A stretch of DNA of 64,000 bases from Ignavibacteriota bacterium. Lineage in GTDB: Bacteria; Bacteroidota; Ignavibacteria; UBA10030; UBA6906. Below, piece by piece: positions 1 through 18,600 of the stretch. The notes under the pieces are model-generated. The model had not been told where the DNA came from. It saw nothing but the letters and a program-made list of their open reading frames with translations, and did not search any database. The translations under genes and the position numbers were made by a program. The DNA is taken from NCBI GenBank assembly GCA_963801355.1, contig CAWDEM010000008.1, forward strand, positions 608,001 through 672,000, read 5' to 3'. Position 1 is the first letter of the stretch; each line of letters starts with the position of its first letter.

Positions 1-703
1 GGTTGGTAGTAGGTTTACTGTCGTAAGTGATGCGGCAGCTTCAAATGGAAAATACATAACTGTTCAGGCTGGTGTACAATCACTTTCCGCAGCTCCAACC
101 GATAGTGCTGGGTTACTCACCATCCCTTTTACGGTGACCAAGGATTCAACCTACTACGTATTTGGCCGCGTAAACTGTCCAACGTATGATGACGATTCGT
201 TTTGGGCAAAAGTGGACGATAGTACGTTTGTGAATTGTAATGGATTGAAAACAACCGGATGGGCGTGGATGAACTTGACCAGTTATCCACTGACAAAGGG
301 TAGTCACACCCTCATTATTGGCTATCGCGAGGATGGAGCCTGTCTTGATAAATTATGCATTACCAATGATATGATTGCTCCAACAGGAATGGGCGAAGCT
401 GATCCTACATTGGTTGGAGTAAATTCTATAGAGGCAATTGATGGCTATGAATTGGGACAGAATTATCCAAATCCGTTCAATCCTATCTCAACAATACGCT
501 ACGACATACCTCATGCAGGTATTGTTTCGTTGAATGTTTACGATGTCATTGGCAGAGAGGTGGGGAATCTTGTGAATGAGGTGCAAGAACCGGGAACATA
601 TTCTGTCTGCTTCGACGCCTCCACATTCTCGAGCGGAATGTATCTGTACAAGCTTGCATCAGGGAAGTTCAGTCAAACGAAAAAGATGATCGTGGTAAGA
701 TAG
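1..703 (+). CDS. C-terminal part of a T9SS-secreted protein, probably carbohydrate-active; 5' end lies outside the window
   Basis: The frame of ORF 134..703 stays open back to base 2. It ends in a T9SS type A sorting domain (LGQNYPNPFNP...SGMYLYKL...KKMIVVR). Confidence 0.85.
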   Translation, partial: VGSRFTVVSDAAASNGKYITVQAGVQSLSAAPTDSAGLLTIPFTVTKDSTYYVFGRVNCPTYDDDSFWAKVDDSTFVNCNGLKTTGWAWMNLTSYPLTKGSHTLIIGYREDGACLDKLCITNDMIAPTGMGEADPTLVGVNSIEAIDGYELGQNYPNPFNPISTIRYDIPHAGIVSLNVYDVIGREVGNLVNEVQEPGTYSVCFDASTFSSGMYLYKLASGKFSQTKKMIVVR

Positions 704-704
704 C

Positions 705-801
705 CGAACGCTCTCGTCATTGTCAAATGCGTTCGCAGCTCCTGCAATCGGTGTTGAATCGGTGCGGACAACGAGCGACTGCGTAACTTCACAATGACGA
801 G
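705..801. repeat. ~80-bp island-end repeat, copy A
   Basis: cgaacgctctcgtcattgt...ctgcaatcggtgttgaatcggtgcggacaacgagcgactgcg matches 4456, 4820 and 6198. Perfect 11-bp inverted repeat at 713-723/791-801. Confidence 0.9.
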
Positions 802-826
802 TTGTAGTCAGTAGAAGTAGCTGGCA

Positions 827-1327
827 CTACTGCTTGTCAGCCTTCGCTGTCACCGGTATGCCAGAATCGTGGCTGTAGATTACTTTCCATTGACCCGCGA
901 GATTCTTGAAGACCATCGTATAGGCGTGCGGGTTGAATGTAATCTTGTCTCCGGACTTCAGGATGGTGTCATCCTTGCCATCCCAGGCGCAGATGACGAT
1001 GTCCTTAGCGATGAAGATGAAGTCCTGGCGAGTGGTGGTCCATTTGCAGGCGGCTACAGACTTGGCCCAATCAGGGACAAACTTCTTGAAGGTTTGATAG
1101 TCCCACCGTGAACCGTCAGCATTGACCATTCCCCAATCACGCGAATCGGCATAGTAGTCTAACCACCCCGCGTCTACCCTCGCAAGTTTTGATATGATGC
1201 TGTCGCATACCGCCTTGATTTCGCTCTTTGTTTGGTCCTTTTGTTGCTGGGTCAATTGATCGCTTGGTGGCGAAGTGCACCCAAGAAACGAGAGCAGCAG
1301 GGCTCCAACAAAGATTTTCGCTTTCAT
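827..1327 (-). CDS. NTF2/SnoaL-like (DUF4440-like) lipoprotein
   Basis: Lipobox-like LLSFLGC, C-terminal YTMVFKNLAGQWKVIYSHDS typical of the NTF2-like fold, GGAGG RBS. Confidence 0.75.
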   Translation of the reverse strand: MKAKIFVGALLLSFLGCTSPPSDQLTQQQKDQTKSEIKAVCDSIISKLARVDAGWLDYYADSRDWGMVNADGSRWDYQTFKKFVPDWAKSVAACKWTTTRQDFIFIAKDIVICAWDGKDDTILKSGDKITFNPHAYTMVFKNLAGQWKVIYSHDSGIPVTAKADKQ

Positions 1328-1399
1328 CGTGACCTCCGTTTGGTGGACCTGCCTAGATTACCAGCGCGCGACTCCGTTAACAACGTGTCGTCACGAGAA

Positions 1400-1786
1400 T
1401 TAGGTCGAGTCCTTCTTCTTTAAAGTCAAAACAGTGTCCACAACCAAGGCAAGCAGTACTCCGACTGCATTCGCAACAAGGTCCATGCTGTCGTATACGT
1501 TGGTCATGATTCCGAACCCATCGAAGACTTCGAACAGCTCTACCGCCGCAAGGGCAAGACCCGCCGCCCAGAGCCGCTTGTATCTAGACTGGACCGGAAC
1601 GAAAAGTGCATTGAAATATACTGCGAAAGATACCGCTACGTTGGCCGCGTAGGCATCAATAACCGCCTCAAACGGTCCCGAATAATGTCTCTTGAACACA
1701 AGCACAGCCACGCCAAGCATGACAAAAACAATGTTGCGCATGCTGGTCATGCCGTCAGAACTGAAGCCCTGTCCTTTCACCGGCAT
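1400..1786 (-). CDS. Small membrane protein (VanZ/DUF2809-like)
   Basis: About 4 hydrophobic segments, VELFE and YDSMDLVANAVG motifs, GGAGG RBS. True start may be 1742. Confidence 0.65.
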   Translation of the reverse strand: MPVKGQGFSSDGMTSMRNIVFVMLGVAVLVFKRHYSGPFEAVIDAYAANVAVSFAVYFNALFVPVQSRYKRLWAAGLALAAVELFEVFDGFGIMTNVYDSMDLVANAVGVLLALVVDTVLTLKKKDST

Positions 1787-1833
1787 GGTACGTCCTCCGA
1801 GAGGCCTGACGCACAGTCACGTGTCCTGGGTCC

Positions 1834-3945
1834 TTATTTCAACAACATCATTCGCTTTGACTCGACATAGTTTCCAGCAGTCAATCGGCAAATGTACACG
1901 CCCGACGAGAGCTTCGCTCCATTGAATTCGATCTGATACTTGCCCGGAGCCTTCTGCCCATCAAGCATTACCGCAACCTCCCTGCCGAGCAGATCGTACA
2001 CAGCCAACCTCACATGACTGGTCGCTGACACCTGAATCCTAATTCCTGTTCTCGGATTGAAGGGATTCGGGTAGTTCTGATGCAAGACCATAGTTCGTGG
2101 AATGCCATTATCATACTCTTGCACCGATGTCATTTCCGAAACCAGCCTTCGCCAGACTCCATTGGAAGATGATCCAGCAAATAGATTTGCGCCCAAAACG
2201 GCAAGGGAGGAGCCACCAGAGCTCACCCAACCCGCGTTGACATGTTTCCAATTTGCGCCGCCATCGGTCGATAGAAACACGCCGCCAGACGTTGCGGCAA
2301 AGAGATTCTCTTCGCTAAGAATAAGAGCAGAGACATTCCGGTATGTCAAGCCGGAATTGTCGGCCGTCCAAGTGGCACCACTGTTGCTAGAACGGAAAAC
2401 ACCACCGGTGGTTCCAGCGAAGAGATTCGTGCCGATGACGGCCAGAGCTTGGACATTTAAGTTCGTCAGGCCCGAATTGACAGCAGTCCAACTGGCACCG
2501 TTATTCGTGGAAAGAAAGACACCATCGTAGTAGGTCCCGGCAAAAAGATACGCCCCGCTGATGGCCAGAGCTTGAACACGCAAGCTCGTCAAACCGGGAT
2601 TGACAGCAGTCCAATTGGTACCGTTGTTTGTGGAAAGAAAGACACCACCGCCGTAGGTTCCAGCAAAGAGATTCGTGCCGCCCTCCCCGTTGAGGCTGAT
2701 GGCAAGAGCTCTGACATCCCGGGTCGTCAAACCCGAACTGGCAGCAGTCCAACTCGTGCCTTGGTTAGTCGACAGAAAAACGCCGCCAGCGTTGGTTCCG
2801 GCCAGGAGATTCGTGGCATTGACGGCAAGAGCCTGGACATTCAAGTCCGTCAAGCCTGAATTGACGGCGGTCCAATTGGTGCCGTCATCCGTAGAAGAAT
2901 AGACGCCACCAACGGCAGTTCCGGCGAAGAGATATGGGCCGATGGCGGCCAGAGCTCCGACAAGCCCGCTCGCCAAACCCGAATTGACTTGTGTCCAACT
3001 GGAACCACCGTTGGTAGTACGAAAGGCGCCACGAAGGAGGGTTCCGACAAAGAGATCCGTGCCGCTGACGGCAAAAGCGTAGACCTTCGCCATGATGGGC
3101 AGATCCGATTGGACCGAAGTCCAAGTACCACCGTTGTTGGTTGAACGGTATACACCATTGCTTGTTCCAACAAAAATATCTGTGCCGCTGACGGCAAAAG
3201 CGATTACTGACGCCGAGATCGGCAGACCCGAATTGGCAGCAGTCCAACTGGTTCCGTCGTTGGTAGAGACGAAGACGCCCATATAGAATAATGTTCCGGC
3301 AAAGAGATTCGTGCCGCTGACGGCGAGAGTCCGTACGTCCGGGTTCGTCAAGCCGGAATTGACAGCAGTCCAAGTACCACCATTGTTTGTAGAACGGAAC
3401 ACGCCACTGTGGGTTCCAGCAAAAATAGTCGTACCCCTGACGGCGAGGGTCCAGACATCCGGGTCCGTCAAGCCGGAATTGACAGCAGTCCAACTAGTGC
3501 CATTGTTCGTGGAAAGGAAGACACCACCACCGTAGGTTCCGGCAAAGAGATACGTGCCGTTGATGGCAAGTGCTTGGACATCTAAGGTCGTCAGGCCTGA
3601 ATTGACGGCAGTCCAACTGGAACCGTTGTTGCTGGAGAGAAAGACGCCACCGTCGGTTCCGGCAAAGAGATTCGTGCCGCTGACGGCAAGCGCCCAGACT
3701 GTCCCACTCCCCAAACCCGAATTGACAGCAGTCCAACTGGCACCGTTGTTGGTCGAGAGATAGACGCCACCATCTGTAGTTCCGGCAAAGAGATTTGCGT
3801 CACTCACGGCAAAACACCGGATGGTTTCCCCTGCGGGCAATGTGGTACGCACCCATTGGGCATCCATTCGTGAGAGACATACAAGCACGCCAAAGAACAG
3901 AAGACTGTGACTCGAAGTTTTCACGTTACACCTCCGCGGAAGCAT
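1834..3945 (-). CDS. T9SS-secreted beta-propeller repeat protein (BNR/Asp-box-like repeats)
   Basis: Signal peptide, about 13 repeats of GVFLSTNNGxSWTAVNSGL and a T9SS CTD (HQNYPNPFNP...KRMMLLK). Start is probably the GTG near 3924 after a GGAGG RBS. Confidence 0.9.
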   Translation of the reverse strand: MLPRRCNVKTSSHSLLFFGVLVCLSRMDAQWVRTTLPAGETIRCFAVSDANLFAGTTDGGVYLSTNNGASWTAVNSGLGSGTVWALAVSGTNLFAGTDGGVFLSSNNGSSWTAVNSGLTTLDVQALAINGTYLFAGTYGGGVFLSTNNGTSWTAVNSGLTDPDVWTLAVRGTTIFAGTHSGVFRSTNNGGTWTAVNSGLTNPDVRTLAVSGTNLFAGTLFYMGVFVSTNDGTSWTAANSGLPISASVIAFAVSGTDIFVGTSNGVYRSTNNGGTWTSVQSDLPIMAKVYAFAVSGTDLFVGTLLRGAFRTTNGGSSWTQVNSGLASGLVGALAAIGPYLFAGTAVGGVYSSTDDGTNWTAVNSGLTDLNVQALAVNATNLLAGTNAGGVFLSTNQGTSWTAASSGLTTRDVRALAISLNGEGGTNLFAGTYGGGVFLSTNNGTNWTAVNPGLTSLRVQALAISGAYLFAGTYYDGVFLSTNNGASWTAVNSGLTNLNVQALAVIGTNLFAGTTGGVFRSSNSGATWTADNSGLTYRNVSALILSEENLFAATSGGVFLSTDGGANWKHVNAGWVSSGGSSLAVLGANLFAGSSSNGVWRRLVSEMTSVQEYDNGIPRTMVLHQNYPNPFNPRTGIRIQVSATSHVRLAVYDLLGREVAVMLDGQKAPGKYQIEFNGAKLSSGVYICRLTAGNYVESKRMMLLK

Positions 3946-4305
3946 CCATCACCGAACTACTTGAGCCGCACCAACAATGAGTCCAGTTCTCAACGTTCTA
4001 GTGCCTCGGGGCCAGAAACGGATAGGGATCACTTGCATTGGCAGACCCCGATGGGGCGAGAGTGCTCGTTAGGGATTCGGGACTGGATGTCTGCCCAGAA
4101 TACCCCCTAAGCACGCTTCCCTCCGAGGACGCACTATCCACGAACAAGATACTCCGGTGTGTGCGAATTGTCAAGGAATGGGAACAGGCTGGATGGATCC
4201 CAAGAATTGGAACCCATGAATCGAAAAAAAGGAGGCGGAGGAAAAACAAATGGCGGATCGAATATCGAAAATCGAGGATCGAGGATGCTGATAGTAGTAT
4301 GACGC

Positions 4306-4460
4306 ATTGCCTCAGAGCTCCTGCGAAGCGGGACCTCGCCTGCTCCGAACTACGCAGAAGTCCGTGGCGCCGAGAGCGACAAAGACTCTGTGCACAAACT
4401 CAAGGTCGTGCTCAAGGAACTCAATGAGTCGCTGGTCTGGCTTGCGATAATTCAGAGAGA
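4306..4460 (+). pseudogene. Fragment of a four-helix-bundle protein (23S rRNA IVP / TIGR02436-like)
   Basis: Manual translation IASELLRSGTSPAPNYAEVRGAESDKDSVHKLKVVLKELNESLVWLAIIQ. Preceded by short GAGGATC-type repeats (4254-4286) and cut off by repeat copy B. Confidence 0.8.
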
Positions 4461-4535
4461 GTCGAATGCGCTCGTCATTGTGAGTGGGGGCAAACTGTTA
4501 CTGCAATCGCTGTTGAATCGGGTGCGAACAACGAG
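4456..4535. repeat. ~80-bp island-end repeat, copy B
   Basis: agagagtcgaatgcgctcgtcattgtgagt...gggtgcgaacaacgag matches 6198-6275. Confidence 0.9.
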
Positions 4536-4595
4536 GGAGAATCCGGCTGTGCCGTCCACTCTTCTTTAAGAGATATTCCTGTTCACATCGTGCGA

Positions 4596-4772
4596 CTATT
4601 TCAACTTCTCCACAACCATTAGGAAGTCAACTTGTACCCCGTAGAATAGGAAAAATGGACGGACATTCGGCATCACCGCAACAACATCTCCATCCAGCCC
4701 GTTCAACAACTGTTCAAGCTTTTCCTGCATATTGTCTTTGTTGACTTCCACACGATGCACTCTGTATTTCAT
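4596..4772 (-). CDS. Small hypothetical protein (58 aa, MKYRVHRVEV...)
   Basis: GAGGG RBS before the ATG at 4772 and plausible globular composition. Confidence 0.6.
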   Translation of the reverse strand: MKYRVHRVEVNKDNMQEKLEQLLNGLDGDVVAVMPNVRPFFLFYGVQVDFLMVVEKLK

Positions 4773-4819
4773 ATCGTCCCTCTGCGTTCTTGTGGTGTCT
4801 TCTGGACTATCACTTTGCC

Positions 4820-4905
4820 ACGCTCTTGTCATTGTGAGTTGGGTTCAACTGCCCCTGCAATTGCTGTTGAATCGGGTGCGGACAAGGAGCAATCGCGTCA
4901 CTTCA
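4820..4905. repeat. ~80-bp island-end repeat, copy C
   Basis: acgctcttgtcattgtgagttggg...gggtgcggacaaggagcaatcgcgtcacttca matches the other copies. Confidence 0.9.
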
Positions 4906-4995
4906 CAAGAGAACAGTTGGATAAAATGTCCCGCTTTCAGACGATAGACATACACACCACTCGCAAGATTAGAACTATCAAATTCGGCCTCGTGG
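4898..4995 (-). pseudogene. Orphan T9SS C-terminal-domain stub
   Basis: Reverse strand reads HEAEFDSSNLASGVYVYRLKAGHFIQ, closely like the end of 6285..7517 (HEVKFDGSNLASGAYVYRLTAGDFVQ). Confidence 0.85.
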
Positions 4996-5008
4996 GCTCC
5001 GACTCTCT

Positions 5009-5599
5009 TCACTCGTTCCCCAACGTAGACACCCCACGGCTGAGCAACGGGTGAGAACGCGCTAGCCAGACAAGGCCAAGACCAGTCACAATACCGTACA
5101 CCAGAGAATCCAACCCATCACCAGCACGGAAACTAATCCAGGCCAGCCCGGTCAGCATCCATCCTGTCACGCTAAACAAGACCCACAGGCTTGCGAGTTT
5201 CATGTGCCGACGGAAAATCCACCATTGTGGCACACCCAGAAACAACCCAAATGTAACAACGGCCGACCAATATCCCGTCAGGTGCAAGCTCCAATGGAAC
5301 GCAATGTTGGCTTGGATGGTCTGTCCAAGTGGATAACCTGCCGCAAAGCCGACGGCGCTTGCTACAAGGAACCGTACAGGGAGCACACCAACGGTTCGAA
5401 CGATGGGCCATTGCAGGCCACCTATAACTGCACCCCAGACCAACCCCTTACCAATACGAGCCCATATCAATGGCTCGCCCCCCAACAGTCTGGCTGTCTC
5501 ACTGCCCAGTTCATAACCCAGGAACATCCCAGCCGAGGAGAGCAGAACGCCGATAAGCCCTGGTTTAATGTTAGTCCAAGTAAACAGTCGCGTTGTCAT
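5009..5599 (-). CDS. Hypothetical multi-pass membrane protein
   Basis: About 6 hydrophobic helices with repeated G..QW motifs. GGAGA RBS downstream of the promoter at 5680-5708. Confidence 0.75.
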   Translation of the reverse strand: MTTRLFTWTNIKPGLIGVLLSSAGMFLGYELGSETARLLGGEPLIWARIGKGLVWGAVIGGLQWPIVRTVGVLPVRFLVASAVGFAAGYPLGQTIQANIAFHWSLHLTGYWSAVVTFGLFLGVPQWWIFRRHMKLASLWVLFSVTGWMLTGLAWISFRAGDGLDSLVYGIVTGLGLVWLARSHPLLSRGVSTLGNE

Positions 5600-5636
5600 T
5601 ATTTTCGATTCTCCAAGGCGGGTTCAATGCAACGCA

Positions 5637-5897
5637 CCGACTCCTACACCGAGTCAGAGCGCGCAATGTGTGTGGCGGAAATGTACCTCCCCCCTTCTCC
5701 AAAGTCAACTTCAATAAGGAATCGCAAGGATTTTCGGCGGTCTATGAGAACACCTACCGATGGAGATGAGCCACGACCAAGCATCACCGTCAGCAGTTGA
5801 CCAAGCACCTATCGGGAATGTGTTGCCCCTCACTTCCCGACCCCTCCAGACGATTCCCCACTGATTCCAGTTGTAGCTCGACTGGAGGGCTGATACC
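5637..5897. repeat. Diverged copy of the integrase-upstream region 8342-8589
   Basis: Shares the blocks gactcctaca(c/t)cgagtc, aatgtgtgtg(g/a)cggaaatgtac, tccaaagtcaa and tgtgttgcccctcact...ccccactgattccagttgt(a/g)gctcgactgga. Confidence 0.9.
5680..5708 (-). promoter_or_regulatory. Sigma70-type promoter TTGACT-N17-TACATT facing the cargo gene
   Basis: Near-consensus hexamers and 17-nt spacer, conserved in the second copy at 8385-8413. Confidence 0.7.
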
Positions 5898-6066
5898 TTG
5901 AGAAAGGCAGGAAGAATAACTGCTGACAGAATTGTTGACAAACAGGCTTGGGAACGGGTATGAGGATTGGGAAAAAGAACAACCCCGACGTGATGCCGGG
6001 GTTGAGGGAAAAGCTGGAAACTCAATCGACAATAGTCGATAGTCCATCGACTATTGTCCATCGTTT

Positions 6067-6203
6067 GTGCACCCACCAGGACTCGAATCCCGTCCCGACC
6101 GAAGTTAGCTAGGCGAAGCCGCAGCTAACTTCGTTGTCGGGACGCGGATCCTCGTCCCGCGCTGCGCGCGGGGCGGGACCTGGAACCCACTGATTAAGAG
6201 AGT
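6067..6203 (-). mobile_element. Displaced tRNA-Lys 3' half (att core) interrupted by a 91-bp hairpin insert
   Basis: gtgcacccaccaggactcgaa[6088-6178]cctggaacccactgattaagag is identical to 28509-28551 apart from the insert. Confidence 0.95.
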
Positions 6204-6292
6204 CGAACGCTCTCGTCATTGTGAGTTGGGGCAAACTGCTTCTGCAATCGCTGTTGAATCGGGTGCGGACAACGAGCGACTGCGTTACTTCA
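6198..6292. repeat. ~80-bp island-end repeat, copy D, abutting the att core
   Basis: Lies between the tRNA fragment and the stop codon of 6285..7517. Confidence 0.9.
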
Positions 6293-7517
6293 ACAGAATG
6301 AGTTTTTTCGATTGAACGAAATCCCCCGCTGTCAGACGGTAGACGTACGCACCACTCGCAAGATTCGAACCATCGAACTTGACCTCGTGAACGCCAGCAT
6401 CTCTCCTCTCATTCACCAACGGGGATACCTCACGACCAAGCATGTCATGGAGACTCAGGCTGACATGCGATGTCTTGGACAAATCGAACTTGATGGTCGT
6501 TGTCGGATTGAATGGGTTTGGATAATTTTGTGAAAGCGAAGACTCTCCGGGCATTTCGTCGGTCTGCCCTGCATTGACAGACGTTGTTCCCCCGTTTGTG
6601 GTTCTGACGATTCTGCCGTTTTCAGCAACAGCGGTCCCGTTATTTGCATCGGTAAAGGAGATGTCAATCAAATGCTTTGTTGTTCCACTTGTTTGTTGTG
6701 TCCAGGTTATACCTCCGTCTGTAGTTCTGCGGATTCTGCCGTTCTCACCGACGGCAGTGCCGTTATTTGCATCGGTGAAGGAGACACTATATAGCTTGTT
6801 TGTTGCTCCACTTGTCTGTTGCGTCCAGGTTATTCCTCTGTCCGTGGTTCTGAGGATTATGCCGTTGTCACCAACAACAGTTCCGGTGTTTACATCGGTG
6901 AAGGAGACATCATACAAATCGTTTGCCGTTCCGCTTGATTGTGAAGTCCAGGTTGTTCCTCCGTCCGTGGTTCTCAGAATCGTACCCTCATAACCGACAG
7001 CCGTCCCGTTGTTCAAGTCAATAAAAGAGACTCCCTCCAGATATCGTGTTGTTCCGCTTGATTGTGAAGTCCATGTCGTTCCGCCGTTTGTGGTTCCGAC
7101 AATTCTGCCGTTTTCACCGACAGCCGTCCCATTGTCTGCATCGATGAAGGAGACGTCATACAGGTCGTTTGTTGTTCCACCCGATTGTCGAGTCCAGGTT
7201 GTTCCTCCGTTTGTGGTTCGGAGGATTCTGCCGTTCTCACCGACAGCCGTTCCGATGTTTACATCTCTAAAGGATACAGCCAGCAAAAAGTCTGATGTTC
7301 CGCTTGTCTGCTGTACCCAGGTTGTCCCCCCGTTTGTCGTCCTGAGGATTCTGCCGTTTTCACCGACAGCTGTTCCGTTGTTTACATCTGTAAAGGAGAC
7401 ACCGCCCAAATCTTCTGTTGTGCCGCTTGTTTGCTGATACCACTGCCCAAATGACGGGCATACGGAGAACACGAGCGGAACCACGACGAGGAATACACGC
7501 TTGAAGTTCCTTTTCAT
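6285..7517 (-). CDS. T9SS-secreted YCF48-like beta-propeller protein
   Basis: Signal peptide, 7 repeats of L..VSFTD.N.GTAVGENGRILRTTNGGTTW and a T9SS CTD. Confidence 0.9.
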   Translation of the reverse strand: MKRNFKRVFLVVVPLVFSVCPSFGQWYQQTSGTTEDLGGVSFTDVNNGTAVGENGRILRTTNGGTTWVQQTSGTSDFLLAVSFRDVNIGTAVGENGRILRTTNGGTTWTRQSGGTTNDLYDVSFIDADNGTAVGENGRIVGTTNGGTTWTSQSSGTTRYLEGVSFIDLNNGTAVGYEGTILRTTDGGTTWTSQSSGTANDLYDVSFTDVNTGTVVGDNGIILRTTDRGITWTQQTSGATNKLYSVSFTDANNGTAVGENGRIRRTTDGGITWTQQTSGTTKHLIDISFTDANNGTAVAENGRIVRTTNGGTTSVNAGQTDEMPGESSLSQNYPNPFNPTTTIKFDLSKTSHVSLSLHDMLGREVSPLVNERRDAGVHEVKFDGSNLASGAYVYRLTAGDFVQSKKLILLK

Positions 7518-7738
7518 GAGATGTCCCTTTCACCTATATACAGAGAAAAGCGACGCACGAGGGGACGTCGGCAGGTCGTCGGGTACAACGCAGGACGGAA
7601 CATTCGGCGGCACGCTGAGTCCCACTTTTGCTTGTTTCGGAAACCAAACGACTGGTTGTAGGTTGAGCATTGTAGTCCATCGTAGCTATGCCCGTGCCTT
7701 CGCGAGCACAGGCCTCACAACCAATGAACTACACTTGC

Positions 7739-8125
7739 TCAGAGAGCTTGCACACCAGGAGGACTTCGCTCGTGAACAAGCGAAAGAATACAGTTCGAAG
7801 GGAGTGAAACAACGTGGGGAATGTGAAAAGCACATAAACAGGTTCGAATGTCTAACGCAGGCTTGCAGGGGCACGCGGTCTCAACGGAAATCTTGCGCAC
7901 TCGGATGCGCTGGCAGAGGAAACTCTTCTTGCGTGGAGTGATCTGCTTCTGTTTGTGCGGGGGGCTCTTTTGCCTGGCGTGACTGTGGGGCTTCGATTCA
8001 CCGGCCAGCGTTACCGTGTGTGGGGGGGCTATCCGCGTTTGAGCATACAGACTCACACGCGGTGCAGAAAAGCCCAATGAAAACAGAAACACCAAAGGTA
8101 TGGAGAAGACTCTCTTCATGACCAA
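7739..8125 (-). CDS. Small exported protein with a Cys/His cluster and C-terminal RSPP
   Basis: N-terminal signal-like segment, CPC...CLCAFHIPH and HERSPPG. Confidence 0.5.
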   Translation of the reverse strand: MVMKRVFSIPLVFLFSLGFSAPRVSLYAQTRIAPPHTVTLAGESKPHSHARQKSPPHKQKQITPRKKSFLCQRIRVRKISVETACPCKPALDIRTCLCAFHIPHVVSLPSNCILSLVHERSPPGVQAL

Positions 8126-8384
8126 AATACTATCCTCGTACCTTTAGGAAGCGGCCACCACTAATGGATATCAACCCCATGTCATCCCCTGCTACAACAC
8201 CAACCGTCTCGAGGACCTCGCTGACGATACTTCAGCGCGAGCTGAACACAATGAACTTGAATCTTCTTGAGACCGGTGCCTGACGAAAGATGTCGGCCGG
8301 TCGTCGGGTTAGACGGTATCTCATAAACACTCGGCGACTCGCTGACTCCTACATCGAGTCGGAGCTCGTAATGTGTGTGACGGA

Positions 8385-8413
8385 AATGTACTCCCCCCCC
8401 TTTCCAAAGTCAA
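8385..8413 (-). promoter_or_regulatory. Sigma70-type promoter TTGACT-N17-TACATT, divergent from the integrase
   Basis: Near-consensus hexamers, conserved at 5680-5708. Confidence 0.7.
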
Positions 8414-8564
8414 ATGCACTCAAGAATCCCAAGGGTTTTCGGGGGTCTTTAGGAAGTGAGACCCTCGGAACTGCGTCAAGTCGGCTATCGGACAAAAGTA
8501 CCCCTCGGGACTGTGTTGCCCCTCACTCCCCGACCCCTTCCAGACATTGCCCCACTGATTCCAG

Positions 8565-9662
8565 TTGTGGCTCGACTGGATAGCCGATATGTTGTTCTCA
8601 GTGAATCGAGAACAATCAAGGGTACATCCGATGTTGAACCACACCAAACTGTCTCTCTTCAAGCGTTCGAATGGAATATACTACCTGGGGTATGTCGAGG
8701 GGAATCGCAGACGGTGGAAGACAACCTCTTGCACCACCAAGTCGGATGCACTGCAGTTCCTGCGAACCTTCGAAGGAACCAAGAGAGAGATGGAACGCAC
8801 TCCCCTGCTCTCCGAACTCTTCACGCGGTTCGAGTCTACACGCGGTAACTCCATCCGTCCGTCAACGATGGACAATTACCGTCTTGCGGTCAACCGATTC
8901 AAAGAGGTCTGCGGAGACAAAGTCATTGACCAATACACCGTTTCAGATATCGAGACATTCAAGAACGCTCAGATTAGCCAGAAGGTGTCGAAGATATCCG
9001 TGAACATCTGGTTGCGTGGTGTCAAATCAGTTCTCGGTTTCGCAGTCAAGCACGAGTGGTTGACCAAGAACCCCGTGCAACGGTCACTTGAGTTTCCGAT
9101 TCCTCAACAGTCCCCAACCTATGTCACCAAAGAGGATTTCCAGAAACTCCTCGGTAAGGTACACGAATCCGTCCTCCGCGACCTCTTCCTTTTCGCCGCA
9201 CTCAGTGGTCTGCGTCTCTCAGAGATACTACACCTCAAGTGGAGTGCGGTGGACTTCGAGAAGAGACAGTTCACAGTATCCAACAGTGAGACCTTCACTA
9301 CGAAAACGGGAAGAGAACGGACGGTACCGATGCACGAGGAGGTGTACAAGGTTCTGTCACTGCGAAGGGGTAACAGTACGGAAGACGGTCTGGTGTTCTG
9401 CAAGAAAGGTGGATACCGCCTCGAACGGAACTATGTCTCGAAGAAGTTCAAGGGGTATGTTCGTGACGCGGAACTATCGGAGAAACTGCACTTCCACAGT
9501 TTGCGTCACAGTTGTGCGAGCTGGCTTGTTGATGCGGGCGTATCTCTGTATGTGGTGCAGAACATCCTGGGACACTCCAATATCAGTACGACCCAAATCT
9601 ACTCACACCTCTCACAGAACACACTGCACGAGAGTGTGAATCGGGTTGCACTCTGCGTTTGA
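8565..9662 (+). CDS. Tyrosine recombinase/integrase (phage/island type with N-terminal arm-binding region)
   Basis: Catalytic R (SGLRLSE), K (TKTGR), HSLRH, LGH and Y (TQIYSH). Start may be the ATG at 8631. Confidence 0.95.
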   Translation: MWLDWIADMLFSVNREQSRVHPMLNHTKLSLFKRSNGIYYLGYVEGNRRRWKTTSCTTKSDALQFLRTFEGTKREMERTPLLSELFTRFESTRGNSIRPSTMDNYRLAVNRFKEVCGDKVIDQYTVSDIETFKNAQISQKVSKISVNIWLRGVKSVLGFAVKHEWLTKNPVQRSLEFPIPQQSPTYVTKEDFQKLLGKVHESVLRDLFLFAALSGLRLSEILHLKWSAVDFEKRQFTVSNSETFTTKTGRERTVPMHEEVYKVLSLRRGNSTEDGLVFCKKGGYRLERNYVSKKFKGYVRDAELSEKLHFHSLRHSCASWLVDAGVSLYVVQNILGHSNISTTQIYSHLSQNTLHESVNRVALCV

Positions 9663-11103
9663 GCCTATTAGGGTAGGATTGGGAGGTATCGTTGTTGTTG
9701 GTGGGATTGGTGGTAAGGTGCCTCGTTCTGTTCGCTCCGTGTCTTCGACACTTCGCTCACCCCGACTGAGAAGCGTCGGGAATCACTCTCCGCTATTCTG
9801 AAGGATGAGGAAGTAGATTCAGAACGCTCTTTGTTCTGAGTCCGAAGGACAAATGCCTCAAGGAAGTCTTACCTCGCAAACAACGCTCGGTTGACCTCAC
9901 GAAGAACGTTCGGTCAATCTCTCTTCTTCCTTCTGTATGGAAATCACACTAAGTGAGGTAGTGAATACCGCGCTTTGTGCGGTGTGCGAACGTCTTCTGT
10001 TCGCACGATGTGTTCCTTACAAGACATAGTACGACTTGATGTCGTTTAGAAATCTGCGGTTGGTATGGTTAGCACTTTCGTTCTTACTAATGGACGCCTC
10101 GGACTCTCGTACCGAGGAACGTGTGTCTCTTCAGATTTGCCACACTTTGGTTTAGGACTTTTTCAAGGTCAATAGTGTGCGGACACAAGGACAGACTCCA
10201 CCAAGCGAGTTGCGACAATGGAGTGGTCGGTTGCGACAACTGGTTCCGTTCAACTTGTGTTCATCTCTTCAGTTCCTTTCCAAAACAAATCCCTCACTAC
10301 GAGTGTGTCTTCGCGGGCACTCATAATGAGGGAGTCAAACAAACCCTTCAGAGGGTTGTGTCGTACATTCATCTGTGCGAAGACATCTTCTCGTCTCTAC
10401 CTATACATATCATCGAGAAATCCCAAACGCTCACTTTTTCTGCACGACCGAGATAATATCTTCAATACGCCTATTGTGACACGGTCACAATCTGACCGCC
10501 TTAGGGGTGTCAAGGGTCGGATAAGTGGTCGGCTATCCACTTCCAGCAGTAAGCCTTGTCAACAGTGTCCGCTCGCCACTCTTGCCTTGCATCGCCTTGT
10601 CCGCTTCACTGGTGACTGTGAATCACTGGACGATTGCCGAGTGCATCCAGACCCTCGCTTGTCCGTCCCACGGAATCGGAGATGGACTCACACTTCCGTC
10701 CACCGCCTCCGTTCGCCCCTTGACCGTGGAGAGGTGTGCCGCAATTCTGGGGTGTCCGAGGATGGTCTGAATACGAGAACCTCTCATATCGCAATCCCGT
10801 TCGATTGCGGAGATTGGTGTCAGAAATCCACGGACGCTTGAGGTTCCTACCGCATTTTGACAGACAAGCAGTGCATCGGGAACACCACCCCGCGTGTCAA
10901 GGTGCACTCCCGTGGTGTTCATAATGCACCCTCCTCAACGCTTCGCCGACTGCCCCCATCCAGTTTGTCGTGAATGAAAAAACTGAACCTTCGTGCGATT
11001 GCTGAGGGAAGGTCTCTCGTATCGAGGTCGCCAGAATTGCCGCTGACGCATCTCCTCGGTTGCGAGATACTTATGGGAAACACACTCACCGTGAGGAACT
11101 GAA

Positions 11104-11418
11104 ATGCCGCAAGGAACGCAAGCCACATATGAGGAAATGCCATACGACCGACTCACACTCGTGGGGAAGGAATTGGGGGACTACAACTCGAAGGAATATA
11201 TCTATCGCGGTCAGTTGGGTGTGTACCGTCTGCGAGTGGGAGAATCCGTCACGGACGAAGGGAAGGTGTTCTACATCTACCAGAACAACAAGTTCTGGCT
11301 GAATCTGTATCCGTCAAACACCAAGAAGGTCTTCGTAGGAAGGGACGATGACGACTACTACATCTTCCGATTCGAGGGGAAGTATGTCTCGGTGTTCAAG
11401 CGGAAGTACGATATTTGA
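11104..11418 (+). CDS. Hypothetical protein
   Basis: 104-aa ORF with a GAGGA RBS and protein-like composition. No motif recognised. Confidence 0.55.
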   Translation: MPQGTQATYEEMPYDRLTLVGKELGDYNSKEYIYRGQLGVYRLRVGESVTDEGKVFYIYQNNKFWLNLYPSNTKKVFVGRDDDDYYIFRFEGKYVSVFKRKYDI

Positions 11419-11542
11419 CCGCTGACGATGGGGTGTCGAACTCAAAACAGAGTCCCGAAATTGTAGACAAGGCTGTTGACAAACTGGACGCAAAAGTAGG
11501 TCGGGATGTGGGGTGTGCGAGGGATGATAGCGAAGGGTCAAA

Positions 11543-11573
11543 AACACCGAACCCCTTCACACGGAAGGGGTTC
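11543..11573 (-). terminator. Intrinsic terminator behind the tRNA fragment
   Basis: Hairpin gaaccccttc-acacg-gaaggggttc followed by a T-rich tail on the minus strand. Confidence 0.6.
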
Positions 11574-11578
11574 TGAGA

Positions 11579-11623
11579 GTGCACCCACCAGGACTCGAAC
11601 CTGGAACCCACTGATTAAGAGTC
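11579..11623 (-). mobile_element. Displaced tRNA-Lys 3' half (uninterrupted 45-bp att core)
   Basis: Identical to 28509-28553. Confidence 0.95.
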
Positions 11624-11947
11624 CGGCAATGATCAGCCAAAACGTGCAAAATAGGGCACTTCTCGGCAGTTGGGTTGTCATAACTTGTCATAAACTGCCA
11701 TCGATTAGCATAAAGTCACTACACTTTCACTACACTCGTTGGGGACGGGGGCCGCCTTCGTCCATGAATATCTCAAGCTGTATTTGACATTGTCAAAAGA
11801 GCATTGTCATTGACGCTCACCGCACTCATCTGGGGCAGGCTTTAACCATGGTGGGATCCAGAATCGACCGCTCGCGGGGGAACAACCTGCGCCCGTTTGA
11901 TTCTGAGACTGCCCTGCGCTATCTTGTTGCATCAGAGAGGTTCACAC

Positions 11948-12253
11948 GTGACGCCAGCAATTCAAGTCAGCCGCAAACAAGTAGCCGAATTCTGTGCACG
12001 GCACAGGATCCGCCGGCTTGCGCTCTTTGGCTCCGTTCTGCGCGCGGATTTCCGCCCCGAGAGCGACGTCGATGTGCTTGTTGAGTTCGAACAGGGAGCT
12101 GCTGTTGGTTTTTTCGGGCTTGCCCGGCTTGAGCGTGAGCTATCCTCTCTTCTCGGAGGCCGGAGGGTCGACCTTCGCACACCGCAGGACCTCAGCAGAT
12201 ACTTCAGAGACTCCGTTGTCGATCAGTCCTACGTGATTCATGGACCAAGCTGA
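11948..12253 (+). CDS. Minimal nucleotidyltransferase antitoxin (MntA-like)
   Basis: [19 protein letters not shown] (GSX10DXD). GTG start after AGAGG, promoter TTGATT-N17-TATCTT at 11897-11925. Confidence 0.9.
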
Positions 12254-12593
12254 CCTGATCCGGCTCCGCCACATGCGAGACGCAGCGGCCGAGGCTCTCC
12301 AGTTTGCAGCGGGGAAGACGCGTGCCGATCTTGACCACGATCGCATGCTCATCCTGGCTATCCTGAAGGATCTCGAGATCATCGGAGAGGCGGCAGGCAG
12401 AGTAAGTCCCTCGGTCAAACAGGACAACCTGGCAGTTCCCTGGGAGGAGATCGTTGGGATGCGAAATCGACTCATCCACGGTTATTTCGATGTCAATCTG
12501 GACGTTGTGTGGGAAACAATCTCGCATGATCTTCCGCACCTCCTCATCGACATCGATACAATCCTGAGTCCACCGGAACAGTCTCAACAGTGA
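12240..12593 (+). CDS. HEPN ribonuclease toxin (HepT/DUF86-like)
   Basis: MRNRLIHGY (RX4HXY) and LEIIGEAA. Overlaps the antitoxin gene. Confidence 0.9.
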
Positions 12594-12658
12594 AGCCAAT
12601 GAGGTCCGGGGCATAGTTCGAGTTCGGACTTGGACAGTTGGGGCATCCTCCAATTGCG

Positions 12659-15526: not shown

Positions 15527-15669
15527 GGGTCCCTCCATTGTTGGTTGTTCGCCGGAATATAGAAAGGCTGGAGGGGGATGTGGTAGGAATGCTTAGACAA
15601 AGAATGCGAGAATCTGGACATCAGACAGGAATACGCTCGTTCGTCCCGAGAGAGGCCATAGTAGGCTCT

Positions 15670-18600
15670 TCAGAGGGCGATCTGGTGGACCTCGGAGGGC
15701 AAAATCCCGAACCGTTCGTGGAAACAAGAACTGAAGTACGAGGGATCGCCAAAGCCGACCTGAAAAGCGATCTCAGCCACAGTCGCGGCATTCTTCTCAA
15801 GAAGCTCGCGCGCACGCTGGAGACGTAAGTACTTGATCAGTTCGGCAGTCGAGAGATTGGTCAGCCCCATCAGCTTGCGGTCGAGATGTCTGCGGCTGAG
15901 GGCAACCTCGCGGGCGATCTCTGCGGCACCGAGGGTTTCGTCACTCATCCGTTCCTCTATCGCAGTCATGACTCGCTTCAGCAACGCGTCATCGAGAGAG
16001 GAGACCACCACTTCTCCAGGCTTCAGGACAACACCCGCCGAGAATTTCGCCCGAAGCTGCCGCCGTTGCTCGATCAGGTTCCGCACACGAGCCAGCAATT
16101 CCTTTGAGTCAAACGGCTTTGTCACATAGTCATCGGCGCCAATATCCAGCCCTTCTATCTTGCTGTCGGTGCCCGCCCGCGCGGTGAGTAGGATCACCGG
16201 GACGTGGCTGGTGCGCACATCCTTCTTCAAGGCACGGCAGAGTTCCATACCATCCATTTCGGGCATCATCACGTCGCTGATCACAATGTCCGGCACGATC
16301 TCCAATGCCCGATCATATCCTTCCTTGCCGTTTCCTCCTTCCTGCACTTCATAGTCGGATTGCAGAAATTCGCGAATATATGTCCTGAGGTCGGCATTGT
16401 CCTCCACAACGAGCACGATCGGTTTCCCATCGGTTGGTGGTATGGGTGGAACAGGACTGGACGCAACCGCAGAGACTCCAAATCCTACGCGTTCTCTTAT
16501 CTCGACTTCAGGCGGAGACGCGGCAGTCTCCTCAGGCTTGTATGCTGACCTGTCAGTGGAAAGGGTCACCGTGAATACCGATCCCTTCCCGGGTGTACTC
16601 TCGACTGCGATCGTCCCGTGGTGAAGGTCGACAAGCTCCTTTGTCAGCGCCAAGCCGATCCCCGTGCCTTCGGTTGTGTGTGTCTCGTCGGCACGGTAGA
16701 AGCGTTCGAAGATGTGGGGAAGATGCTTTGGCGAAATGCCGGGACCGGTGTCGGAAACCCTCAACCCCCATGCCCCTCTCCCATTTGGGGAGAGGGGGAG
16801 CGAGGGGGTGAGGGTAACCGTCACGCTTCCTCCTTCCCCCGTAAACTTCACCGCATTCGACATCAGGTTGTTCAGAATCTTCTCCAGTTTGTCCCCGTCG
16901 AAGAAGCCAACGGCAGTGTTGGCACCAGGGTGGAACTCCAGCGAGATCTTCTTCCTCTCCGCCCACGACTCAAATGACATCACCGTACGGCGGACGAACT
17001 GCACAATATCGGACTTCGACACCTGCAGCTTCATCATCCCGGATTCAATACGAGAGAAGTCCAGCAACTGACCGACCAACGTAAGGAGCTTCTTGGCGTT
17101 GTCCCGTATGAGTTTGAACTTCTCTGGTGTGGACGGATCTCCGTTCGCCTCAATACCCTGTTCTGCCGGTCCCAGAATGAGCGTCAGTGGCGTTCGAAAC
17201 TCGTGTGAGATATTGGCAAAAAAACGAGACTTGAGGCGATCCACTTCTGCGAGGCGTTCTCTCTGGAAGTGCTCCATCTTCGCCGTCTGCTGCAAGCGTA
17301 TCTGGCGAATCCGGAGCCGATATGCTCCAAGGAGTGCTCCAACAAAGAGTGATGCATACATGGCATATGCCCACATCGTCTGCCACCACGGGGGTGAAAT
17401 GACTATAGCGACTGACGTGCCGGTTTCATTCCATAGCCCTTCGTTGTTCGATCCCTTCACCTTAAAGACATAGTCACCCGGGTTCAGATTGGGATACGAA
17501 GCATAACGCCGTGTCCCGGAATAGACCCAATCTTCATCCACTCCCTCCATCTTGTAGGCATACTGGTTCCTTTCCCCGTTCAGGTAGCTCAACGCGGCAA
17601 ACTCGAAGGATATGAAGTTGTCATCATGAGCCAGACGAACCTCATTGGACAACGGACAAGGTTTGTCGAACTTCCTAAAGGAGGTTACTACGACAGGAGG
17701 GACGTACAGATTGTCTTCTATGCTGTCGGGATGAAAACGCGTCAGGCCGTTTGCACCCGCGAAAAATATCTCGCCGTCTCCGGTTTTGCACCCCGAACTG
17801 TTTACTTTGTCTGACGGCAAGTCCAAACCATACGAGACATCATAAAACCTGAAGCGACCTGTTTCGGGATCGTATTTTGCCATCCCCTTACTCGTGTTGA
17901 GCCACAGAGAGCCGTGATTATCCTCCTGTATGCCGCGCATGCTGCTACTCGGCAGGCCACACCTTTCGGTGATGTCACTGAAATCTTCTGTCGATCGCTC
18001 ATATCTGAAGAGACCGGCCCAGGATGCAAACCACAATCTGCCCTTGTTGTCCTCACGCATCTGATAGACCGTATTCGAATTATTGCGTCCTGGGCTTTGG
18101 TGTTTCTTGTCGGTAACATGTTCGGAAAGAGTACCTTTTGCATGATCATAGCAGAACAGTCCACCCCAGCCAGGGGCAACCCAGAGGAGGCCGAAGCTAT
18201 CTTCGAACATATACATAATTTCTTTTCTCAGGTTCGCAACTTCCGTAACCCGTTGTGTCGTTGGGTCAAGCAGATAGAGACCGCCTGTGGCGGTTCCGGC
18301 GTAGTAACCTCTGTCGGTCTTCTGGACACAGGAGAGAGAGTGATTGAAGGCCTTCCAGGAGGGACCGAGGGAAAACGTTCTGTTGCCAAGTGTATCTCGG
18401 ATGTAAAAGCTCCCATCTATTGTTCGAAATGCCAAATCGCCTTCCGGGCAAACGAAGCACAGGAGGTCGGTTCCAGAGGAGTATGGAACAAACTGCCCTA
18501 TCCGCGGGTCAAATTGAAGCCATCCTCGTTCGTTGAAGGCATACACCCATATCTTCCCCTCGTTCCCTTTCACAAGGTTAAGGGCGACTCCCCCCATGGG

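Follow-up and report, generated by a model that had tools for sequence, protein, structure and literature searches.

Tandem arrays of att-bounded units, some of them without an integrase, are already known, and the locus described here is a variant of them. Streptococcal ICESt1-type elements and IMEs build site-specific accretion arrays with CIMEs; in the sections of that account that deal with accretion, an incoming element enters a resident att, the tandem units carry att repeats of the target gene's 3' end, some units have att sites but no integrase, and tRNA-Lys is a recorded target (PMC5704250). The ssrA islands of Dehalococcoides, in the portion of the source that describes them, are ~12 kb long, with a 20-bp repeat and a serine recombinase module of six genes, and lie in tandem downstream of one small RNA gene, whose 3' end recurs as direct repeats that delimit them; the integration module is present in about half of the islands, and the authors suggest that the others, again about half, may be CIMEs, while the cargo comes from one functional class (PMC3146451). 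Integrons were the comparison drawn in the preliminary description of this locus. Their integrase, IntI, has a family-specific insertion in the catalytic domain, and integron integrases lack an arm-binding domain, according to the passages on these enzymes in PMC8138268.

The window analysed here is a stretch of 64,000 nucleotides from an Ignavibacteriales genome of 4.8 Mb (GCA_963801355.1, contig CAWDEM010000008.1, positions 608,001 to 672,000). The repeats at this locus are best read as the common ends of several small mobile elements inserted serially into a lysine tRNA gene, and the locus is therefore not an integron. As in the streptococcal arrays, tandem units end in repeats of the target gene's 3' end and some have att sites without an integrase; as in Dehalococcoides, the units follow a single small RNA gene with direct repeats of its 3' end and draw their cargo from one functional class. 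Unlike the streptococcal CIMEs, the integrase-less mini-units are only ~1.2-1.5 kb long, follow a fixed plan in which two arms enclose a single cargo gene and, after it, the promoter block, and are commoner than the complete form, the block occurring in 12 of 68 family genomes and the complete element in two; conjugation and mobilization genes are missing here. The locus differs from the Dehalococcoides islands in its single tyrosine integrase, in the length of its repeat (45 bp) and of its units (1.2-8.6 kb), and in a common promoter block that faces the cargo. What is unusual, then, is that some units are very small, integrase-less and single-gene, each with its own promoter-like block.

The preliminary description had proposed a tRNA-integrating element, and the target can now be named: a complete tRNA-Lys(CTT) gene on the minus strand at 28509-28582, which that description did not mention. 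Three copies of the last 45 bp of this gene lie upstream of it in the same orientation. Copy 2 (11579-11623) is identical to the tRNA 3' half; copies 1 (6067-6200) and 3 (20206-20341) are split by the same 89-bp double-hairpin insertion (6089-6177 and 20228-20316, 99% identical to each other), which may disable these two sites. All three copies are additions to the earlier account. On the strength of the tRNA gene and its 3'-half copies we therefore read window positions ~696-28582 as att-bounded units that stand in tandem over ~28 kb and are accompanied by one integrase only, small integrative units that would have accumulated by site-specific recombination at tRNA-Lys(CTT), and we hold this reading to be rather probable. 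An intact tRNA gene and direct repeats of its 3' part flank the element, as expected of tRNA-targeting islands, and att-bounded integrase-less units stand in tandem with an integrase-bearing unit and have att in common with it, as in CIME accretion.

The integrase-bearing unit, U4 (6201-11623), lies between two copies of the 45-bp tRNA 3' end and holds, from left to right, a ~100-bp repeat, minus-strand cargo, a ~260-bp block, int, a 1.4-kb non-coding region, orf104 and a terminator-bearing left arm. Its cargo consists of a BNR-repeat protein of 410 aa that ends in a C-terminal T9SS sorting domain (6285-7517, minus strand) and a 128-aa ORF without a family match, first downstream of the block promoter (7739-8125, minus strand), whose N-terminus looks signal-peptide-like by eye. 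The conserved non-coding region (9663-11100), devoid of codon-phase bias, is 86-94% identical over 9840-10480 to its copies in G018, a genome of a different genus; orf104 (11104-11418, plus strand) is a coding ORF, conserved but of no known family, with mismatches concentrated in one codon phase; and the left arm (11419-11578) carries a minus-strand terminator-like hairpin at 11573-11549. That int lies mid-unit, not beside att as in many islands, counts against the array reading. A relative of the integrase at 51% identity directly adjoins a tRNA-Arg.

The integrase itself is a 343-aa tyrosine integrase on the plus strand (8631-9662). Its strand had been assigned correctly, its start probably not: homologues align from 8631, and the ATG there is most likely the initiation codon, not the TTG at 8565. 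The protein matches Pfam Phage_integrase (3.7e-39), and its catalytic set (R, K, H-x-x-R-H, Y) is conserved, R195, K225, H289, R292, H293 and Y324 being invariant in 14 aligned homologues. We reject its assignment as IntI, in agreement with the preliminary description, because it fails the integron-integrase models, with 81.5 bits against a cutoff of 265 for TIGR02249, split over two separate stretches, and 45.5 against 435 for NF011946, and because its N-terminus is predicted to be of the arm-binding type that had been suspected. The best-scoring models are XerC/XerA-like, likewise below cutoff. A fold search ranked the Tn1549 and lambda integrases first and the Vibrio integron integrase (2a3v) 23rd, full-length lambda integrase (1z1b) aligning over 365 columns. 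No Pfam arm-binding family matched the integrase; the AlphaFold2 model (mean pLDDT 81.6, N-terminal blocks 60-78) has strands at 8-11, 17-23 and 26-31 and a helix at 37-46, which predicts a lambda-type arm-binding domain of a three-stranded sheet and a helix ahead of the core-binding domain.

The neighbouring unit, U3, which contains block copy 1, is integrase-less and ends at att copy 1. Its cargo is a 196-aa ORF without a family match (5009-5599, minus strand) that by eye looks like a polytopic membrane protein, and its left arm (5901-6066, the 'E3tail' type), with minus-strand terminator-like hairpins at 6004-5980 and 6058-6028, is conserved beside att or tRNA-Lys in L122, G206, G218, G031 and G034. 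Both kinds of left arm place minus-strand terminator-like hairpins where the tRNA transcript would end. The left arms of the integrase-bearing and integrase-less unit types are unrelated, so that one integrase serving both is an assumption. Further left, three minus-strand genes make up the cargo of U1. The one at 827-1327 encodes a SnoaL-like lipoprotein and the one at 1400-1786 a membrane protein of 128 aa, and both of these families are block-adjacent cargo in other genomes too; the third (1834-3945) encodes a BNR/sortilin-type protein of 703 aa that ends in a C-terminal T9SS sorting domain. A 78-aa minus-strand ORF of no known family (4596-4832) has its start against repeat copy 3, an arrangement that recurs in three other genomes. 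Our ORF calls thus agree with the seven co-oriented minus-strand ORFs, divergent from the integrase, that were first reported. To the right of U4 lie U5 (11624-20205) and U6 (20342-28508), neither of which contains an integrase domain. Each encodes a hybrid two-component regulator (1448 aa in U5, 1394 aa in U6), to which U5 adds an MNT/HepT toxin-antitoxin pair and a T9SS protein of 959 aa, and U6 a HepT/MNT pair and a T9SS M1 peptidase. The arms of U5 have CACTACAYTTT-type repeats instead of the 100-bp repeat, and U6 is common to a same-genus genome at 86-91% identity. U5 and U6 may be old and fixed, since their arms are wholly different and they are common to a genome of the same genus, a further point against the array reading.

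The repeat, first put at ~80 bp, does occur four times, but its length is nearer 100 bp; these are its only matches in the genome. Copy 1 (696-803) abuts the stop of a plus-strand T9SS gene (2-703) and has no recognisable att on its left. Copy 2 (4454-4556) follows a weak, degenerate att-like stretch at ~4390-4463, which is only suggestive because 24 of 500 shuffles scored as well. Copy 3 (4820-4917) runs into the remnant of a T9SS C-terminal domain (4917-5012, minus strand), and copy 4 (6203-6300) immediately adjoins att copy 1 and extends over the stop codon of the gene for the 410-aa cargo protein. Copies 1-3 have no clear att, which counts against the array reading. The repeat directly abuts an att copy in nine of 22 aligned repeat copies (win_rep4 in the window, L122_1, L126_1, L126_2, G206_1, G031_a, G031_b, G18_1 and G18_2). 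We read the repeat as the right arm of attP, its invariant ~30-bp core probably a protein-binding site.

The distribution of these modules in related genomes is patchy. Of the 277 genomes that represent the order, eight have the repeat; they fall in a single family and in six of 110 genera, and the four genomes of the same genus lack it. The non-coding region of the integrase-bearing element is found in two of 68 family genomes. Integrase-less units lie beside att or tRNA-Lys in L122, G206, G218, G031 (two places), G024 and G034; each runs from att through repeat, a single cargo gene and block to a short terminator-bearing arm and a second att. In L122 such a unit is followed by an integrase-bearing one. 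G206 and G020, sister species of one genus, provide an occupied and an empty site: a 1,218-bp segment of G206 is absent from G020 exactly at the tRNA 3' half, between flanks that are 89-95% identical. The segment consists of att, repeat, a gene for a 165-aa cargo protein, block and short arm, and is flanked by a 43/45 repeat and the tRNA; the comparison concerns an integrase-less unit of other genomes, not U4. In G018, two complete integrase-bearing units, each bounded by the 45-bp repeat, stand in tandem beside tRNA-Lys, with backbones ~90% alike, different cargo and uninterrupted att sites. In the sequencing runs examined, which contain less than a tenth of the sampled words and yield short contigs of relatives only, neither circles nor vacant sites nor excision junctions were seen, which counts against the array reading.

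The alternative that survives best, though we consider it unlikely, is that the units are old site-specific arrivals, now fixed, whose modules have been kept by descent, local duplication and homologous recombination, the integrase being a relic or active at most on its own unit. The three repeat copies without a clear att and the two interrupted att copies out of three fit such a history, as does the occurrence of U5 and U6 at 86-94% identity in a same-genus genome without a close integrase at the locus. A close integrase is missing from most genomes with integrase-less units, and from all five other repeat-bearing genomes checked, which also counts against the array reading; the best matches are at 33% identity in G206 (with a stop codon), 29% in G020, 26% in G218, 30% in G034 and 39% in G205. 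Complete integrase-bearing elements are as rare as their non-coding region. Against long fixation, the integrase ORF is intact with all catalytic residues present, and the element backbone is better conserved between genera (79-94% identity) than the flanking chromosomal DNA (63-72%). The repeat occurs in five other genera yet is missing from the four same-genus genomes, the difference between the sister species at the tRNA is exactly one unit, and the tandem elements of G018 retain their att sites whole.

The preliminary description had instead read the locus as an integron-like platform, with one integrase, one promoter and one slot, in which promoterless cargo is captured at a palindrome, at the repeat or at both. 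We now regard this as highly improbable, even though all the sequence features that it listed are present and non-random. The promoter-like TTGACT-N17-TACATT lies on the minus strand at 8413-8385, with a second copy at 5708-5680; the palindrome GACTC-N7-GAGTC lies at 8344-8360, with a second copy at 5639-5655; and the block, given as ~250 bp, recurs as 5629-5900 and 8334-8600 at ~75-80% identity, with conserved int-proximal parts at ~5803-5900 and, highly conserved, at ~8495-8595. For this pair, homology does begin within a few bases of the palindrome, as capture there would suggest. The locus also resembles integrons in that its mostly single, co-oriented genes lie beside one divergent tyrosine recombinase gene and each have a short conserved element at their 3' end. 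A single integrase stands beside at least six units, and in 11 of 11 units with both modules the variable cargo has the repeat on one side and the block on the other, its direction of transcription leading away from the latter. When cargo breakpoints were mapped in relatives, the edge of the repeat facing the cargo varied within only ~20 bp over 22 copies next to many different cargos, as had been expected. No such clustering was seen at the palindrome.

In integrons, the platform promoter Pc serves mostly promoterless cassettes inserted at attI. A single Pc of this type is rejected here: the promoter-like block is repeated with the units, twice in the window and with integrase-less units in other genomes, and because each unit has its own promoter block there is no one shared promoter. 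No attI-like junction was identified at the locus. Of 15 block copies just six have the palindrome intact, compensatory changes numbering one at most, and the block-side cargo junctions vary by unit (~8293, 8325-8338, 8405 and 8503-8520), falling at four or more positions across ~230 bp, with the promoter half of the block absent from three units. The preliminary description had itself named scattered cargo junctions as grounds against capture, and the model is weakened accordingly. On the repeat side, the T9SS tail remnant at 4917-5012 points to cargo replacement that was imprecise. The units are bounded by tRNA-derived 45-bp repeats, the putative recombination sites, and G206 and G020 differ at the tRNA, not at the palindrome. 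The enzyme, too, departs from the integron type in its model scores and its predicted arm-binding domain. Integron attC sites, which lie at the 3' ends of cassettes, are imperfect palindromes that fold in single-stranded form. The repeat is rejected as an attC-like site: its four copies (plus strand) give single-strand folding z-scores of -2.3, -0.4, +0.1 and -1.2, and across the 22 copies its candidate stem has a near-invariant left half and a right half that varies without compensatory change.

Slightly more improbable still is a non-mobile origin, with repeat and block as paralogous 3' and 5' untranslated regions of duplicated secreted-protein genes and the tRNA fragments as coincidental remnants; several cargo genes do encode a T9SS C-terminal domain into which homology runs from the repeat, and the block's promoter half precedes small envelope-protein genes in G013, G007 and G215 with no att in the 3-kb loci examined, but the repeat also lies beside cargo without that domain, the block has only two full copies in the genome besides two 25-30-base matches (E 0.004-0.008), which like the repeat confines it to this locus, and neither the nine repeats that abut a 45-bp tRNA copy nor the precise unit-sized difference at the tRNA of sister species would be expected.

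Under serial integration at tRNA-Lys, the attP of the circular element would comprise the left arm, the 45-bp core and the 100-bp repeat, the repeat acting as right arm. The arm-binding-type integrase would recombine attP with the tRNA gene or with any resident att copy of the array, crossing over within the 45-bp identity, whose end lies in the anticodon stem-loop, so that an incoming element rebuilds the tRNA 3' half and adds a terminator behind the tRNA. From its sequence the block appears to be a promoter/leader module upstream of int, kept in integrase-less mini-units too. It would act as a divergent regulatory module, its near half directly upstream of int and its far half a sigma-70-like promoter with a conserved leader driving the cargo. 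Each of the two promoter hexamers is preserved in 13 of 15 block copies, and the spacer between them is ungapped; the match covers nine of 12 positions of a sigma-70-like consensus that may not be this phylum's, and a scan for such sites gave six overall, not above the 4.8 +/- 2.0 of shuffles. The unit ending at 6200 is a miniature relative of U4 that has repeat and block in common with it but a short terminator-bearing arm where int would be, and any mobility it has today would depend on an integrase supplied in trans, like that of a cis-mobilizable element.

It is tempting to go further, and to regard the mini-units as non-autonomous gene cassettes that form a genuine class, share a pool of envelope cargo and enter tRNA-Lys one after another through an arm-binding integrase supplied in trans. 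We offer this tentatively, as a possibility that we lean against for now. Around a tRNA-derived core, each cassette would join a single envelope-protein gene to a promoter/leader block of ~260 bp, with an arm of ~100 bp and a terminator arm of ~165 bp, its gene drawn from a common pool of small membrane, lipoprotein and T9SS genes. MITEs outnumber transposons, and the mini-units would likewise outnumber their autonomous partner. If this is true, mini-units would be a functional analogue of the integron that works by attP-by-attB chemistry and in which every cassette brings its own promoter.

The locus is an accretion array at a tRNA-Lys gene. tRNA-Lys(CTT), the sole tRNA that ARAGORN finds in the window, lies on the minus strand at 28509-28582. 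Three further copies of its 3'-terminal 45 bp, all oriented like the gene, are found at 6067-6200, 11579-11623 (identical) and 20206-20341. The identity of these att copies with the gene stops in the anticodon stem-loop, two bases inside the 5' strand of the stem, and two of them, at 6067-6200 and 20206-20341, are interrupted at the same point by 89-bp inserts that are 99% alike. From left to right, the array comprises three segments headed by a conserved repeat (696-4453, 4454-4819 and 4820-6066), an att copy, the integrase-bearing unit (6201-11578), a second att copy, a large integrase-less unit (U5), a third att copy, another such unit (U6) and the tRNA gene. The repeat at 6203 begins immediately past the first att copy; the other three of the four repeats in the window have no clear att copy. 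No transfer genes are present among the array elements. The left boundary lies at or beyond 696 and is not defined by synteny: a tblastx comparison with G018, a genome of another genus, matched only repeat domains, and the 10 kb left of the window are spread across four contigs of the same-genus genome G004. An Rfam search of positions 1-30000 (E up to 0.1) returned the tRNA and two chance-level matches, leaving the promoter block, the repeat and the non-coding region described below unmatched.

The preliminary description proposed a single platform that captures genes at a palindrome and a repeat. All the features that it named are in the sequence, so that its observation is confirmed; its interpretation is only partly supported, since each unit has its own promoter block and it is whole att-bounded units that differ between genomes. 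Comparative evidence instead suggests that what moves is probably the whole unit between two tRNA-derived att sites. The clearest case is a pair of genomes of one genus, G206 and G020, which are 89-95% identical on either side of tRNA-Lys. G020 has a left arm followed by the tRNA, and G206 has a left arm, a 43-of-45 att copy, a repeat, a gene for a 165-aa membrane protein, a block, a short terminator-bearing arm and the tRNA. The difference amounts to 1,218 bp, located exactly at the tRNA 3' half, and is, at the level of sequence comparison, the strongest evidence for an integrase-less unit as a discrete att-bounded insertion. Units with a block and a short arm also adjoin tRNA-Lys in G031 (at two places), G218, G024 and G034. 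On one metagenome contig (L122), an integrase-less unit of repeat, 229-aa gene, block, short arm and att precedes an integrase-bearing unit, and another (L126) has two att-plus-repeat junctions before its integrase. The left arm of these miniature units is unrelated to that of the integrase-bearing unit (11419-11578).

Integrase-bearing units can also stand in tandem. G018 has two integrases, 76-78% identical to that of the window, 3.7 kb apart. Its locus runs att, repeat, cargo, block end, integrase, non-coding region, a small ORF (orf104), left arm and att, and the same unit order is then repeated a second time before tRNA-Lys. The two units are about 90% alike and differ from about position 69 of the repeat to the integrase-proximal part of the block, a segment that holds a 194-aa gene in one and a 290-aa gene in the other. 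Between G018 and the genome under study, the element backbone is 79-94% identical and the chromosomal flank right of the tRNA 63-72%.

Within units, the proposed order holds regularly: a promoter block, then cargo, then a conserved 3' element. The divergent layout, in which seven minus-strand ORFs (827-8125) face the plus-strand integrase ORF, is likewise present. Cargo is transcribed away from the block in each of the 11 units where repeat and block occur together. Nine further copies of the promoter half were found: in seven a minus-strand ORF starts 79-252 bases away, and in two minus-strand ORFs overlap the block. Three repeat-bearing segments without a block have their longest ORFs on the other strand. 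With few exceptions, the encoded proteins have a signal peptide or a T9SS tail, or are lipoproteins or membrane proteins, and three cargo families recur across different genomes and contexts. The families of the 128-aa membrane protein (1400-1786) and the SnoaL-like lipoprotein (827-1327) each form the single block-downstream cargo in other genomes (occurrences in L122, G206, G031, G034 and G013); in the window both stand behind a 703-aa BNR gene, with no block. A fragment of a T9SS tail (4917-5012) left between the third repeat and a 196-aa gene indicates that cargo has been replaced by imprecise events.

The two block copies, at 8334-8600 and 5629-5900, are about 75-80% identical and are the only full ones in the genome. 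Both carry TTGACT-N17-TACATT on the minus strand. A promoter scan overall performs at chance level (6 sites against 4.8 +/- 2.0). Across 15 aligned copies of the far half, which contains the palindrome and these promoter-like hexamers, each hexamer is kept in 13 and the spacer is ungapped. The most conserved stretch of this half runs from the -10 hexamer to the palindrome. For the two blocks in the window, homology does start at the GACTC-N7-GAGTC palindrome, as had been described, but elsewhere the block-side junctions scatter: units with at least four different cargos share one at about 8293, other units have theirs at about 8325-8338, two units near 8405, and three units without the promoter half at 8503-8520. 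Of the 15 copies, 6 retain an intact palindrome, with at most one compensatory change. Judged from these alignments, the palindrome is a poorly conserved feature of what is probably the 5' leader and does not fix where junctions fall.

The near half of the block, about 85 bp just upstream of the integrase, is conserved in all 13 copies, integrase-less ones included. Its most conserved piece (8555-8580 and 5861-5886), CCCACTGATT followed by CAGTTG, is kept in 13/13 and reproduces the anticodon stem region of tRNA-Lys, both strands, with a shortened loop. The block and the att core share 10 bases, a match that by itself is not significant, as shuffled sequences reach its local-alignment score in 58 and 34 cases out of 500, and that serves only as a lead. 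CCCACTGATT-CAGTTG may be a core-type binding site of the integrase with a regulatory use. A pseudo-tRNA or small RNA in this half was dropped as a candidate, as the stem of one copy is absent in the other 12.

On the opposite side of the cargo, the junctions are tighter. The repeat was correctly described as having four copies (696-803, 4454-4556, 4820-4917 and 6203-6300, the sole matches in the 4.8-Mb genome), although it measures about 100 bp and not about 80. In 22 aligned copies a core of about 30 bp is invariant or nearly so, and homology on the cargo side stops within about 20 bp past it whatever the cargo; breakpoints thus cluster at the repeat edge as predicted, but not at the palindrome. 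On its other side, nine of the 22 copies pass directly into the 45-bp att, four lead into the beginning of a conserved ORF of 78 aa, and several start only from position 42-47. The start of that ORF (4596-4832 in the window) coincides with the left edge of the repeat (in the window the copy at 4820-4917) in four genomes, including G034 (L205), G205 (L218) and G218 (L220), so that ORF and repeat form a second recurrent junction type, separate from att-plus-repeat. We rejected a hairpin in the repeat core because compensatory change is absent, and a folding site does not fit the behaviour of the repeat. From its position and conservation, we infer that the repeat is a putative attP arm adjoining the core.

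ATG 8631, the point from which homologues align, is the most likely start of the integrase. The enzyme has Phage_integrase and SAM-like core-binding Pfam domains, and its catalytic residues are invariant across 14 aligned homologues. The best NCBIfam models are XerC/XerA-like, under cutoff, and the integron-integrase models score 81.5 (cutoff 265) and 45.5 (cutoff 435). In the AlphaFold2 model (mean pLDDT 81.6), residues 8-46 form three strands and a helix before the core-binding helices, and Foldseek ranks the Tn1549 integrase first (1.9e-12), full-length lambda integrase second and a Vibrio integron integrase 23rd. Model scores, fold and ranks all agree with the earlier assignment of a non-IntI enzyme with an arm-binding N-terminus, and the enzyme is consistent with the arm-binding tyrosine recombinases, a group described in PMC8138268. 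A prophage origin is without support, as IMG/VR holds no close relative (best match 36% identical, of full-length type). Matches at E 1e-20 or better occur in 26 of 61 genomes; those above 70% identity occur in G018 only, with one at 54% in G001. In five other repeat-bearing genomes the best match is only 26-39% identical, and that of G206 has a stop codon. Most of the genomes with miniature units have no close integrase. In another Ignavibacteriales MAG, an integrase with 51% identity (L043, 7813-9020) lies 113 bp downstream of tRNA-Arg(TCT), indicating that relatives use other tRNA targets and the commoner layout of integrase beside att.

Between the integrase and orf104 lie 1.4 kb (9663-11100) in which codon-phase bias is absent. 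The part at 9840-10480 is 86-94% identical to G018 at the DNA level, where the integrase gene is only about 74% identical; one of the G018 copies is without about 9890-10300. Some 100 bases (10697-10804) are about 80% conserved in L124 and L125, whose integrases are only 58-59% identical. The element may use this region as a cis-acting site or as an RNA gene. By the codon phase of its mismatches with G018 (13:5:2, 15:3:1 and 9:2:1), orf104 (11104-11418) is clearly coding. It is conserved and adjoins the left arm in all complete elements, a position that makes it a candidate accessory (directionality) factor. Searches of Pfam, NCBIfam and ESM Atlas gave no match for orf104 or for the 78-aa, 196-aa and 128-aa ORFs.

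U5 and U6 (11624-28508) have an identical gene plan. Each carries a T9SS enzyme (GH130-like in one, an M1 peptidase in the other), a hybrid two-component regulator and an MNT/HepT pair, and neither carries an integrase. Their arms have short CACTACA-type direct repeats in place of the 100-bp repeat. Both are shared with G004 at 86-94% identity, also at tRNA-Lys, where that genome has four att copies and the array carrying them has no integrase.

The inserts in the att copies (6089-6177 and 20228-20316) are GC-rich double hairpins that occupy the same T-loop point of att copies with different arms. Their folding z score is -8.5, and none of 200 shuffles was equally stable. A third copy, 79% identical, lies within tRNA-like T-arm sequence elsewhere in the genome (G000:C8:1515724-1515796; L232 about 1500-1600) and, by eye, adjoins an apparent tRNA 3' part. 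The corresponding att in G004 is without the insert, which looks like a small palindromic insertion element targeting the T-loop DNA of tRNA fragments. One low-depth contig connects 6085 to 6178, an att without the hairpin, with a shorter side of only 20 bases.

The components differ in their spread. Among 277 genomes of the order, 8 have the repeat; they belong to a single family and represent 6 of 110 genera, and none of the four same-genus genomes has it. The block occurs in 12 of 68 family genomes (9 of 29 genera), and the 1.4-kb non-coding region and the complete integrase-bearing element in 2 of 68 each. All 14 sequencing runs screened contained 0.05-0.09 of the sampled words, and contigs from four of them (three DNA, one RNA) are short pieces of relatives, mostly 88-95% alike, none spanning a unit. 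Pieces related to the integrase and non-coding region were present in the RNA library, a presence that does not demonstrate transcription.

Arrays that grow in tandem at tRNA genes are well known, as are att-bounded remnants without an integrase, and the basic mechanism here is therefore not new. As described in passages of PMC5704250, site-specific accretion with CIMEs is the closest known system, together with the Dehalococcoides ssrA islands, which stand in tandem and about half of which are without an integration module according to passages of PMC3146451. Among the papers listed in literature searches, none on integrases, genomic islands or tRNA-Lys contains the name of this taxon, and none describes a comparable integron-like array at a tRNA. 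Within this known type, the integrase-less units, miniature and each with its own promoter block, are an unusual variant. They are regular, with one gene and a promoter/leader block between conserved arms in 1.2-1.5 kb, and their spread is unusual as well, the block being found in 12 of 68 family genomes versus 2 of 68 for the complete integrase-bearing element. Should the units prove to be fossils, the locus still illustrates clearly how a tRNA hotspot builds up in layers. If they are mobilized in trans, they would represent a second route to integron-like gene arrays and would supply an understudied phylum with a tractable integrase and att site, together with a portable promoter module. That the cargo consists almost entirely of cell-envelope and secreted proteins suggests that the system diversifies the cell surface.
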